Part shown: positions 11,714-16,120 of the stretch, in pieces
Position numbering within the stretch: the stretch's first letter is position 1
Layout of the letters: each line of letters opens with the position of its first letter
NCBI RefSeq assembly: GCF_003334255.1
Contig: NZ_QOWU01000036.1
Direction: 5' to 3' (one strand)
DNA length: 53,120 nucleotides
From: Escherichia coli
Lineage (GTDB): Bacteria > Pseudomonadota > Gammaproteobacteria > Enterobacterales > Enterobacteriaceae
Made by a program: the position numbers and the translations under genes
The notes under the pieces: generated by a model
What the model saw: the letters and a program-made list of their open reading frames with translations, nothing else
Database searches by the model: none
What the model was told of the DNA's origin: nothing

Positions 11714-12343
11714 ATGCTTAAGCCAGACAACCTGCCCGTTACATTTGGCAAAAACGATGTAGAAATTATTGCACGAGAAACACTTTATCGCGGCTTTTTT
11801 TCATTAGATCTTTATAGATTTCGTCATCGTCTATTCAACGGGCAAATGAGTCATGAGGTGCGGCGGGAAATTTTTGAGCGCGGTCACGCCGCAGTCTTGC
11901 TACCCTTTGACCCAGTGCGTGATGAAGTTGTGCTGATTGAGCAGATTCGGATTGCCGCGTACGACACCAGCGAAACCCCTTGGCTACTGGAGATGGTTGC
12001 CGGGATGATTGAAGAGGGTGAAAGTGTGGAAGATGTTGCCCGTCGCGAAGCGATTGAAGAGGCGGGACTGATAGTCAAACGGACCAAACCGGTGTTAAGT
12101 TTCCTGGCAAGCCCGGGGGGCACCAGTGAGCGTTCGTCAATTATGGTGGGCGAAGTGGACGCCACGACCGCAAGCGGTATTCACGGTCTGGCTGATGAAA
12201 ACGAAGATATTCGCGTTCATGTGGTAAGCCGGGAACAGGCATACCAGTGGGTAGAAGAGGGGAAAATCGACAACGCAGCGTCGGTCATCGCTTTGCAATG
12301 GCTGCAGCTGCATCATCAAGCGTTAAAAAATGAGTGGGCATAA
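11714..12343 (+). CDS. nudF: ADP-ribose pyrophosphatase (Nudix)
   Basis: 209-aa ORF with Nudix box ([22 protein letters not shown]). Confidence 0.95.
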
Positions 12344-12766
12344 ATGAAGCGTTACACACCTGACTTTCCTGAAATGATGCGCCTGTGCGAGATGAACTTT
12401 TCACAATTGCGCCGTTTGTTACCGCGCAATGACGCACCCGGCGAAACTGTAAGCTATCAGGTGGCAAACGCACAATATCGGCTGACGATTGTGGAATCGA
12501 CCCGATACACTACCCTGGTGACAATAGAACAGACTGCGCCCGCGATCAGTTACTGGAGCCTTCCGTCAATGACGGTGCGTCTGTATCATGACGCGATGGT
12601 GGCTGAAGTGTGTTCAAGCCAGCAGATTTTTCGCTTCAAAGCGCGGTATGATTATCCTAATAAAAAGTTGCATCAACGCGACGAAAAGCATCAAATTAAT
12701 CAGTTTTTAGCGGACTGGTTGCGATACTGTTTAGCACATGGAGCGATGGCGATTCCGGTTTATTAG
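12344..12766 (+). CDS. yqiB: DUF1249 family protein
   Basis: 140-aa ORF immediately abutting nudF stop. Confidence 0.85.
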
Positions 12767-12790
12767 CGTCGTGAAACCTAAGGACACCAT

Positions 12791-13618
12791 TTGGAAAGCC
12801 TGTTAACCCTTCCTCTGGCTGGTGAGGCCAGAGTCAGGATTTTACAAATTACCGACACTCACCTGTTTGCACAAAAGCACGAAGCCCTGTTAGGGGTAAA
12901 CACCTGGGAGAGTTACCAGGCGGTGCTGGAGGCGATTCGGCCACACCAGCACGAATTCGACCTGATTGTCGCGACAGGTGATTTAGCGCAGGATCAATCC
13001 TCTGCGGCCTATCAGCATTTCGCTGAAGGCATCGCAAGTTTTCGTGCGCCCTGCGTCTGGCTGCCGGGCAACCACGATTTCCAGCCCGCGATGTACAGCG
13101 CGTTACAGGATGCGGGTATCTCCCCGGCGAAGCGCGTGTTTATTGGTGAGCAATGGCAAATCCTGTTGCTGGATAGCCAGGTGTTTGGCGTGCCGCACGG
13201 TGAGCTGAGCGAGTTTCAGCTTGAGTGGCTGGAACGTAAACTGGCCGATGCGCCAGAACGCCATACGTTGCTGCTGCTGCATCATCATCCGCTACCTGCG
13301 GGTTGTAGTTGGCTCGATCAACACAGTCTGCGTAACGCGGGCGAACTGGATACCGTGCTGGCGAAGTTTCCGCACGTCAAATACTTGCTGTGCGGTCATA
13401 TTCATCAGGAGCTGGATCTCGACTGGAATGGTCGCCGCCTGCTGGCAACGCCGTCGACCTGTGTGCAGTTTAAGCCGCACTGTTCCAACTTTACGCTGGA
13501 TACCATCGCGCCCGGCTGGCGTACTCTCGAGTTACATGCTGATGGCACGCTGACCACCGAGGTGCATCGCCTGGCGGACACACGTTTCCAACCTGATACC
13601 GCTTCAGAAGGCTACTGA
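12791..13618 (+). CDS. cpdA: 3',5'-cAMP phosphodiesterase (class III, metallophosphatase)
   Basis: 275-aa ORF with metallophosphatase motifs (DTH..GDL..GNHD..GHIH); appears to start at a non-ATG (TTG) codon with AAGGA Shine-Dalgarno. Confidence 0.9.
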
Positions 13619-14199
13619 TGTCTACGCTTCTTTATTTACACGGTTTCAACAGCTCGCCGCGCTCTGCAAAAGCGAGCTTGTTAAAAAACTGGCTGGCGGA
13701 ACATCACCCTGACGTTGAGATGATCATTCCGCAGTTGCCGCCGTATCCTTCCGACGCGGCAGAGCTGCTGGAATCCATTGTCCTGGAACATGGCGGTGAT
13801 TCGCTGGGTATTGTCGGTTCGTCACTGGGGGGATATTACGCCACCTGGTTGTCACAATGTTTTATGCTGCCCGCAGTGGTGGTAAACCCGGCGGTGCGCC
13901 CGTTTGAACTGCTGACGGACTATCTCGGTCAGAACGAGAACCCCTACACCGGGCAGCAATATGTGCTAGAGTCACGCCATATTTACGATCTTAAAGTCAT
14001 GCAGATTGACCCGCTGGAAGCGCCGGATTTGATCTGGCTGCTGCAACAGACGGGAGATGAAGTGCTGGATTACCGCCAGGCGGTGGCGTACTACGCTTCC
14101 TGCCGCCAGACTGTCATAGAAGGCGGCAACCACGCATTCACGGGCTTCGAAGATTATTTCAACCCGATCGTCGATTTTCTTGGTCTGCACCATCTCTGA
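13618..14199 (+). CDS. yqiA: Esterase YqiA (alpha/beta hydrolase)
   Basis: 193-aa ORF; GSSLGG nucleophile elbow; start overlaps cpdA stop (TGATG). Confidence 0.9.
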
Positions 14200-14227
14200 C
14201 GATCAACTCGAATTACTAACTTAAACC

Positions 14228-16120
14228 ATGACGCAAACTTATAACGCTGATGCCATTGAGGTACTCACCGGGCTTGAGCCGGTTCGCCGCCGTCCGGGGA
14301 TGTATACCGATACCACTCGCCCTAACCATTTGGGGCAAGAAGTCATTGATAACAGTGTGGATGAAGCACTGGCGGGTCACGCAAAACGCGTGGACGTTAT
14401 TTTACATGCTGACCAGTCGTTAGAAGTTATTGACGATGGGCGCGGGATGCCGGTGGATATTCACCCGGAAGAGGGTGTACCGGCGGTTGAACTGATTCTT
14501 TGCCGTCTGCATGCAGGCGGTAAATTCTCTAACAAAAATTACCAGTTCTCTGGCGGCCTGCATGGCGTGGGGATTTCGGTGGTTAACGCCCTGTCGAAGC
14601 GCGTAGAAGTTAACGTGCGCCGCGATGGTCAGGTTTATAACATCGCCTTTGAAAATGGCGAAAAGGTGCAGGATTTACAGGTTGTCGGCACTTGCGGTAA
14701 ACGCAATACTGGTACCAGTGTGCACTTCTGGCCGGATGAAACCTTCTTTGACAGCCCGCGATTTTCTGTTTCACGCCTGACGCATGTGCTGAAAGCCAAA
14801 GCGGTATTGTGCCCTGGCGTTGAGATCACTTTTAAAGATGAGATCAACAATACCGAACAACGCTGGTGCTATCAGGACGGTCTGAATGATTACCTGGCGG
14901 AAGCGGTAAATGGTCTGCCGACGCTGCCGGAAAAACCGTTTATCGGTAATTTCGCTGGTGATACTGAAGCTGTGGACTGGGCGCTACTGTGGCTGCCGGA
15001 AGGCGGTGAACTGCTGACCGAAAGCTACGTCAACCTTATCCCAACGATGCAGGGCGGTACCCATGTTAATGGTCTGCGTCAGGGCCTGTTGGACGCGATG
15101 CGTGAGTTCTGTGAATACCGCAATATTCTGCCGCGCGGTGTAAAGCTGTCGGCGGAAGATATCTGGGATCGCTGCGCCTATGTGCTGTCAGTAAAAATGC
15201 AGGATCCGCAGTTTGCCGGGCAGACGAAAGAGCGTCTCTCTTCGCGTCAATGCGCGGCATTCGTTTCTGGCGTGGTGAAAGATGCCTTTATCCTGTGGCT
15301 GAACCAGAACGTTCAGGCGGCTGAACTGCTGGCGGAGATGGCGATTTCCAGCGCCCAGCGCCGTATGCGTGCGGCCAAAAAAGTGGTGCGTAAAAAGCTG
15401 ACCAGCGGCCCGGCGTTGCCTGGCAAACTGGCTGATTGTACCGCGCAGGACCTTAACCGTACCGAGCTGTTCCTTGTGGAAGGTGACTCCGCAGGCGGAT
15501 CTGCCAAGCAGGCGCGCGATCGCGAATATCAGGCGATCATGCCACTGAAAGGTAAGATCCTTAACACCTGGGAAGTCTCTTCCGACGAAGTGCTGGCTTC
15601 GCAGGAAGTGCACGATATTTCGGTAGCGATCGGTATCGATCCTGACAGCGACGATCTGAGCCAGCTTCGTTATGGCAAAATCTGTATCCTCGCGGATGCG
15701 GACTCTGATGGTCTGCACATTGCCACGCTGCTCTGCGCTTTGTTCGTAAAACATTTCCGCGCGTTGGTGAAACACGGTCACGTTTACGTCGCACTGCCAC
15801 CGCTCTACCGTATTGATCTCGGGAAAGAGGTTTATTACGCGCTGACGGAAGAAGAGAAAGAGGGCGTACTTGAGCAATTAAAACGCAAGAAAGGCAAGCC
15901 GAACGTCCAGCGTTTTAAAGGTCTGGGGGAAATGAACCCGATGCAATTGCGCGAAACCACGCTTGATCCGAACACTCGCCGTCTGGTGCAGTTGACTATC
16001 GATGATGAAGACGATCAGCGTACTGACGCGATGATGGATATGCTGCTGGCGAAGAAACGCTCGGAAGATCGCCGCAACTGGTTGCAAGAGAAAGGCGACA
16101 TGGCGGAGATTGAGGTTTAA
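14228..16120 (+). CDS. parE: DNA topoisomerase IV subunit B
   Basis: 630-aa ORF; GHKL ATPase and TOPRIM motifs ([15 protein letters not shown]); paired with parC further along. Confidence 0.95.

Follow-up and report, generated by a model that had tools for sequence, protein, structure and literature searches.

The nudF-yqiB-cpdA-yqiA-parE cluster of Escherichia coli and the conserved UUG initiation region of cpdA

The five genes nudF, yqiB, cpdA, yqiA, and parE lie closely packed at positions 11714-16120 of the stretch of Escherichia coli DNA studied here (53,120 nt; RefSeq assembly GCF_003334255.1, contig NZ_QOWU01000036.1), which we refer to as the window. They form the cluster already annotated in E. 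coli, very probably carried on one polycistronic mRNA with modes of translation that differ from junction to junction, next to a divergent tolC gene. This architecture is ordinary and already known, and the original prediction, which had been made from the sequence letters alone and proposed co-transcription and translational coupling of the cluster with a non-ATG start for cpdA, goes no further than what is already annotated for E. coli K-12 and serves mainly as a sanity check. The only residual novelty of the locus is the order-wide invariance of the cpdA UUG initiation module, a region on which, judging from the alignments presented here, strong purifying selection acts at the level of the nucleotides, the weak start codon included. 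From this follows one modest new point, that translation of the cyclic AMP (cAMP) phosphodiesterase CpdA is seemingly subject to an unusually strict sequence constraint, the weak UUG being kept across Enterobacterales.

Gene order and junctions of the cluster

The segment 11400-16400 is 100% identical over 5001 nt to E. coli K-12 MG1655 and was matched, at a coverage of at least 80%, in 5426 of the 5426 complete E. coli genomes searched. For all five genes the MG1655 coordinates given by RefSeq and its Prokaryotic Genome Annotation Pipeline are the same as those from the open reading frame list and from direct reading (Table 1). All five proteins also have full-length NCBIfam equivalog matches far over the curated cut-offs (NudF, 441 bits against NF008003 with a cut-off of 248, residues 1-209; CpdA, 518.5 bits against NF008359 with a cut-off of 225, residues 1-275 of 275; YqiA, 379 bits against NF008291; ParE, 1250 bits against TIGR01055 parE_Gneg), and the CpdA translation shows the metallophosphoesterase motifs DTH, GD, and GNHD. 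The gene identities first assigned from the letters are correct by both the RefSeq annotation and the equivalogs, and every coordinate given with them agrees with the RefSeq annotation of MG1655. The sole member of the cluster without a known function is yqiB; a sequence search found no relative of YqiB in the PDB, and a medium-confidence model gives it a layout of a helix, five strands, and a second helix. By annotation the cluster is bounded upstream by the divergent tolC and downstream by the convergent ygiN.

Two of the four junctions bring a stop codon and a start codon into contact in the geometry of stop/start coupling. Direct reading shows, as predicted, that the nudF stop TAA (12341-12343) abuts the yqiB ATG (12344-12346) with a gap of 0 nt and that the cpdA stop TGA (13616-13618) and the yqiA ATG (13618-13620) have an A in common, which makes a 1-nt overlap (-1 nt) of the form TGATG. 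This geometry is absent from yqiB/cpdA, where 24 nt separate the genes, and from yqiA/parE, where 28 nt do. A claim of translational coupling throughout the cluster overreaches because only two of four junctions have stop/start contact, and what stands of it is the geometry at nudF/yqiB and cpdA/yqiA; as first worded, the coupling statement left out yqiB. The 24-nt spacer before cpdA provides that gene with a Shine-Dalgarno (SD) sequence of its own and holds an in-frame stop. When the strength of the SD is taken as the energy of the best anti-SD duplex and compared among the five genes, cpdA has the strongest (-5.7 kcal/mol), followed by yqiB (-5.4 kcal/mol, with an SD-like GAGTGGG within nudF), nudF (-4.0 kcal/mol), and the weak yqiA (-3.4 kcal/mol, with an SD-like GAAGG within cpdA), while the value for parE (+0.1 kcal/mol) amounts to no SD. 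The leader of parE (14200-14227) is AU-rich, unstructured (fold energy -0.5 kcal/mol), and not conserved, in sharp contrast to that of cpdA.

From this anatomy and from textbook ribosome behaviour, a ribosome ending at the nudF stop would be expected to restart on the abutting yqiB ATG, and one ending at the cpdA stop to restart on the overlapping yqiA ATG. Restart at both junctions would mean that the nudF/yqiB and cpdA/yqiA pairs are made in linked amounts. The gene cpdA would be initiated independently at its UUG, in an unstructured site with a good SD (AAGGA, 6-nt spacer), the weak start keeping phosphodiesterase output low, and parE would be initiated from its unstructured AU-rich leader without an SD.

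The order of the genes was followed in 80 loci from other Enterobacteriaceae species, in which CpdA is 81-98% identical to the E. coli protein, and in further loci (Yersinia, Hafnia, Erwinia, and distant gammaproteobacteria) that were reached via YqiB homologues. The order NUDIX-DUF1249-Metallophos-UPF0227-parE is kept in all 80 Enterobacteriaceae loci, usually with a divergent TolC-like gene; Yersinia, Hafnia, and Erwinia keep both the five-gene order and the TolC-like gene, as do gammaproteobacteria in which the identity of CpdA is only 41-49%. The cluster order is thus conserved across gammaproteobacteria, and the tight junctions are widely kept within Enterobacteriaceae. The TGATG-type overlap of cpdA and yqiA recurs in 76 of the 80 loci, and also in Yersinia and Hafnia. 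Between nudF and yqiB a 4-nt ATGA overlap is found in 72 of 78 other Enterobacteriaceae loci, and the junction is -4 or 0 in 74 of the 78; exact abutment of these two genes is a peculiarity of Escherichia, as only Escherichia loci abut. The spacer between yqiB and cpdA measures 24-28 nt in 73 of 79 Enterobacteriaceae loci, and that between yqiA and parE 26-44 nt in the Enterobacteriaceae relatives.

A certain looseness of the junctions speaks against a strict role for them: cpdA and yqiA stand at +3 in Erwinia and at +8 in Trabulsiella, cpdA is preceded by 80-88 nt in Yersinia and Hafnia, gaps of 74-173 nt occur in distant taxa, and the junctions of the distant gammaproteobacterial loci range over 0-249 nt. 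The tight junctions might then be a mere by-product of deletion bias in operons, with the downstream genes freshly initiated and no functional coupling between neighbours. The window itself lends this some weight. In 10 of its 31 co-directional adjacent pairs the gap does not exceed 2 nt (qseC/qseB, hybB/hybC, and hybC/hybD are among them), so that abutting or overlapping genes are routine and those of the cluster statistically unremarkable; the junction form also drifts between taxa, both at nudF/yqiB (0, -4, -1 or +2) and at cpdA/yqiA (-1, -4, +3 or +8), and yqiB has a decent SD to be initiated from. What compaction alone accounts for poorly is that the two overlaps persist in the numbers given above despite a divergence of about 40% at synonymous sites, and that yqiA has so weak an SD, which would favour reliance on upstream ribosomes. 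We therefore hold it rather unlikely that nothing but compaction is at work, and keep to the reading in which modes of translation are specific to the junction.

The neighbourhood of the cluster also deserves mention. Throughout gammaproteobacteria the divergent partner of the nudF-cpdA cluster is a gene for an outer-membrane channel of the TolC type (window 10028-11713; loci L082, L083, L087, and L093-L100). Export of cAMP by TolC has been reported (see the discussion in PMC3776858), and taken together with the divergent pairing this places genes for the export and for the degradation of cAMP around one shared intergenic region. The cluster thereby links a cAMP-degrading enzyme with a divergent tolC, the reported cAMP exporter, and with an essential topoisomerase subunit. 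The gene for the other topoisomerase IV subunit, parC, follows directly after parE or one gene later in some distant gammaproteobacteria (L083, L084, L087), and in E. coli it lies about 7.5 kb downstream of parE (window 16168-25909), with ygiN, mdaB, ygiZ, qseBC, ygiW, ygiV, mqsRA, and ygiS between the two.

Composite proteins occur among public database entries (P0003, P0006, P0009, P0028, P0076, and P0007). Several annotated as CpdA are 428-469 aa long and carry both the metallophosphoesterase and the YqiA (UPF0227) domains, and one is a 385-aa DUF1249+CpdA protein; a frameshift or an error in a stop codon at a tight junction is the probable origin of such entries. Natural YqiB-CpdA fusions were considered as a functional link and rejected, the long CpdA homologues P0198 and P0263 being without DUF1249.

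As to the source of the window, it lacks the IS2 copy that splits a fimbrial usher gene in the MG1655 record NZ_CP032667.1 (window 1-3537), and over 46 kb the two are set apart by 8 mismatches and a single gap, a 1-nt indel that falls between metC and exbB. The absence of IS2, the indel, and the mismatches together mark the window as a close relative of MG1655 and not MG1655 itself.

Transcription of the cluster

Co-transcription of the five genes is plausible on several grounds. All five lie on one strand in an order that is conserved, and a terminator scan found no terminator-like site in any junction or spacer, the few + strand consensus matches sitting inside parE. In the literature nudF--yqiA-parE has been treated as a single operon (PMC3946193), and the homologous genes of Yersinia ruckeri have been described as an operon (PMC5981175). 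One mRNA would run from the tolC-nudF intergenic region, where the nudF operon presumably has its promoter and where the tolC promoters presumably lie as well, through parE and end at the hairpin after it. This hairpin (16132-16156) is the only strong one, with a folding energy of -20.3 kcal/mol and z = -4.2 on the + strand, and is likely the 3' end of the operon, with a probable terminator role for parE. A point that weighs against that role is that a U-rich tract is present only on the - strand, the ygiN side, and none on the + strand. Seen from parE the structure resembles a terminator that lacks its U-tract, or else an element that stabilises the 3' end of the RNA.

Scans for promoters gave little. 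Nothing in the tolC-nudF intergenic region exceeded the default threshold for sigma-70, where only a weak TTCACT-17-AACAAT was seen, and the region has no match to the CRP consensus with two mismatches or fewer, window-wide counts of such matches being at chance. Strong internal sigma-70 promoters were likewise looked for and rejected, since only weak 8/12 matches were found in the cluster (TTGTCG-15-GATATT at 13811, plus a few inside yqiB) and none at the cpdA/yqiA boundary.

Two published observations sit uneasily with a single transcript. Genomic SELEX (systematic evolution of ligands by exponential enrichment) with RpoD has an entry for an 'internal promoter' between cpdA and yqiA (PMC3946193), and yqiA, which lies upstream of the essential parE, yielded transposon insertions in both orientations (preprint 10.1101/072470), a hint of some parE transcription that is independent of upstream read-through. 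A complex operon with secondary promoters is, on account of both, quite possible, and weaker internal promoters may add to the expression of yqiA and parE. A stronger version of this would have internal promoters in cpdA/yqiA supply most of the yqiA-parE mRNA, so that parE expression does not depend on nudF and cpdA, and the packing of the genes does not amount to co-regulation; the parE leader, which lacks an SD and is not conserved, would fit with this in suggesting an expression logic unlike that of the neighbours. The SELEX result is in vitro binding only, however, no sigma-70-like match near the cpdA/yqiA boundary reaches 9/12, and parE stands directly downstream even in those loci in which CpdA is only 41-49% identical. 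This stronger version deserves to be kept in view but is on balance the less probable one, and we favour a single polycistronic mRNA to which internal promoters may make the smaller contribution.

The start codon and initiation region of cpdA

The original prediction had cpdA initiate at TTG with a good SD, and everything that can be read from the sequence is in agreement with it, including the RefSeq annotation. The TTG (12791-12793) is preceded by AAGGA (12780-12784) at a spacing of 6 nt, and an in-frame TAA (12779-12781), three codons upstream, closes the frame. Translation of 12767-12868 gives RRET-stop-GHH-L(TTG)-ESLL...ITDTH without an ATG or GTG, and the TTG is the only ATG, GTG or TTG codon between the in-frame TAA and the essential DTH (DxH) metal motif. 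With the TAA upstream and no ATG or GTG before ITDTH, this TTG is the only canonical cpdA start available. Among the 49 annotated coding sequences checked in the window it is the only TTG start, exbB and hybA using GTG. TTG was also read in 80 of 80 Enterobacteriaceae loci and in 7 of 7 further loci, that is, in every one of the 87 Enterobacterales loci read; the starts called in distant gammaproteobacteria, which are gene-caller predictions only, are mixed (GTG, TTG, ATG, GTG, ATG, ATG, GTG). The cpdS gene of Serratia is likewise predicted to start at TTG, and the TTG of this and other cAMP phosphodiesterase genes is routinely switched to ATG 'to enhance translation efficiency' (PMC3726613). 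Since CTG codons are present at positions 4 and 9, one might suppose that cpdA is mis-annotated and starts at such a near-cognate codon. The closed frame upstream, the SD at its 6-nt spacing, the invariance of the TTG and its context in 87 loci, and the NCBIfam CpdA model, which aligns from residue 1 of the TTG-started protein, make a start elsewhere extremely improbable.

Conservation around this start goes well beyond the codon itself. In an alignment of 2.85 kb from 74 Enterobacteriaceae, in which a column was counted as conserved at 97% or more, the longest run of conserved columns is the 28-nt AAACCTAAGGACACCATTTGGAAAGCCT (12774-12801) at the cpdA initiation site. Of its positions, 20 are neutral-like (third-codon or intergenic), and the fraction of such sites conserved in the background is 0.169. 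The naive probability of the run is about 4e-16, a figure uncorrected for phylogeny though all columns share one tree. A 25-nt core at 12780-12804, AAGGACACCAT-TTG-GAAAGCCTGTT (in the mRNA AAGGACACCAU-UUG-GAAAGCCUGUU), is identical in Mangrovibacter, in a 73%-identity relative (locus L092), and in Yersinia and Hafnia, the latter two keeping it behind upstream spacers of 80-88 nt that are unrelated in sequence. In Erwinia the spacer bases are altered, with AAGGA, the distance of 6 nt, and TTGGA.AGCCTGTT retained. The core is frozen, spacer bases included, in Enterobacteriaceae, Yersiniaceae, Hafniaceae and, partly, Erwiniaceae. Altogether the frozen stretch (12774-12804) spans the ribosome-binding site of cpdA, the spacer, the TTG, and codons 2-5, and the synonymous sites of codons 2-4 (GAA AGC CTG) are frozen with it. 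In the same alignment the ribosome-binding regions of nudF and parE, unlike that of cpdA, are not conserved. It is because the invariant run contains 20 free sites and because the core is kept in Yersinia and Hafnia that the region appears to be under strong purifying selection. In Pluralibacter (L066, 3950-4040) a tandem duplication of GAAACCT(A/G)AGGAC upstream of the cpdA SD makes two SD-like copies.

What the constraint serves can be narrowed in part. Start codons generally drift toward AUG, with UUG disfavoured, and weak starts are offset by a stronger SD and by positions -1 to -3, which together with the early codons are determinants of initiation (PMC5622118). Such compensation would explain part of the constraint at cpdA, but hardly the frozen synonymous sites in codons 2-4, and the extreme conservation suggests a constraint on CpdA translation not yet characterised. 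We put forward only tentatively that the core at 12780-12804 is a post-transcriptional control site that tunes cAMP degradation apart from the transcription of the operon; a small RNA or an RNA-binding protein may target it, or it may work as in cyaA, as a UUG initiation module that responds to polyamines.

A regulator acting in trans, whether a small RNA or an RNA-binding protein of the kind of CsrA, might bind the cpdA initiation region and so set CpdA output in place of operon transcription and coupling. The invariant 28-nt block, the persistence of the core where the upstream sequence is unrelated, and the frozen codons 2-4 would all be expected of a binding site, two GGA motifs (12782-84 and 12793-95) are present as for CsrA, and ribosome profiling has cpdA translation about 2-fold higher with RyhB (log2 -1.12, p 0.014; PMC4666370), the same source listing cpdA as a computationally predicted RyhB target. 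The named candidates gained no support, and the extreme conservation is the one positive sign. With the confirmed RyhB sequence, 31% of random background windows paired at least as well as the cpdA initiation region did in its best duplex, and pairing is thus no better than random. For CsrA, a literature search found no paper that links it to cpdA. Nor did RNA structure or a riboswitch at the yqiB-cpdA junction survive, as the predicted fold of the cpdA initiation region (-3.8 kcal/mol) is weaker than that of shuffled controls (z = +2.07) and an Rfam scan of 10000-17500 gave no match even at E <= 1. A weak UUG start may simply need an optimised, unstructured context, and Erwinia tolerates another spacer before the TTG. 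That a regulator of this kind governs CpdA output accordingly seems doubtful to us, and independent initiation of cpdA at its UUG on the operon mRNA remains our preferred reading.

Table 1. Coordinates of the cluster, its junctions, and flanking features in the window
Feature	Position	Strand	Basis
tolC-nudF intergenic region, divergent	11510-11713	.	annotation: tolC (-), nudF (+)
nudF, ADP-ribose diphosphatase (Nudix), ATG start	11714-12343	+	RefSeq; NCBIfam NF008003 equivalog
nudF stop / yqiB start, TAA/ATG, 0-nt gap	12341-12346	+	direct reading
yqiB, DUF1249 protein	12344-12766	+	RefSeq; NCBIfam equivalog
yqiB-cpdA spacer, 24 nt, with AAGGA (12780-12784) and in-frame TAA (12779-12781)	12767-12790	+	
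invariant cpdA translation initiation region, AAACCTAAGGACACCATTTGGAAAGCCT, 28 nt	12774-12801	+	alignment
cpdA, class III 3',5'-cAMP phosphodiesterase, TTG start	12791-13618	+	RefSeq; NF008359 equivalog
cpdA stop / yqiA start, TGATG, 1 nt common	13616-13620	+	direct reading
yqiA, esterase (UPF0227)	13618-14199	+	NF008291 equivalog
yqiA-parE spacer, 28 nt, AU-rich	14200-14227	+	direct reading
parE, DNA topoisomerase IV subunit B, essential	14228-16120	+	RefSeq; TIGR01055 parE_Gneg
GC-rich hairpin, 11 bp, between convergent parE and ygiN	16132-16156	.	folding

Comparison with known systems

The closest known system is the K-12 operon itself, nudF-yqiB-cpdA-yqiA-parE (b3034-b3030; taken as one operon by Shimada et al. 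2014, PMC3946193), which has identical sequence, order, coordinates, and start codons and shows no difference within the region. For the TGATG junction the models are trpB-trpA and trpE-trpD, the classical pairs with a UGAUG overlap, in which coupling was shown experimentally. They have the same stop/start overlap and the same operon context on one strand as cpdA/yqiA; whereas coupling of the trp pairs is an experimental result, that of cpdA and yqiA is suggested by geometry and conservation. The closest solved structures to CpdA are Rv0805 of Mycobacterium tuberculosis (2hy1) and GpdQ of Enterobacter (2dxl), which align to residues 17-225 with E values of about 1e-22 to 1e-18; as distant paralogues or orthologues from other genomic contexts, they are uninformative on the architecture of the operon.

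The mutT(nudF)-yqiB-cpdA-yqiA genes of Vibrio vulnificus are, according to Kim et al. 2009 as related in PMC3776858, an operon activated by cAMP-CRP. As related there, the gene order is the same, the genes lie next to a divergent tolC, and they are described as one operon. Unlike what that account gives for Vibrio, a CRP site upstream of nudF had to be rejected for E. coli, there being no consensus match with two mismatches or fewer in its tolC-nudF intergenic region.

The other comparison concerns the start codon, for the gene that makes cAMP and the gene that destroys it both start at UUG. In cyaA, the gene for adenylate cyclase, expression goes up when the UUG is replaced by GUG or AUG (Reddy et al. 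1985, as cited in PMC5622118), and cya is one of the 'polyamine modulon' genes, whose starts are inefficient and which polyamines stimulate (PMC7177335). The effect of UUG to AUG is thus, by that citation, a measured one in cyaA, whereas in cpdA the UUG is proposed by analogy to limit output. If the UUG codons of cpdA and cyaA mean that translation in both arms of cAMP turnover is deliberately throttled or regulated, they would make a small, testable addition to the picture of catabolite signalling.

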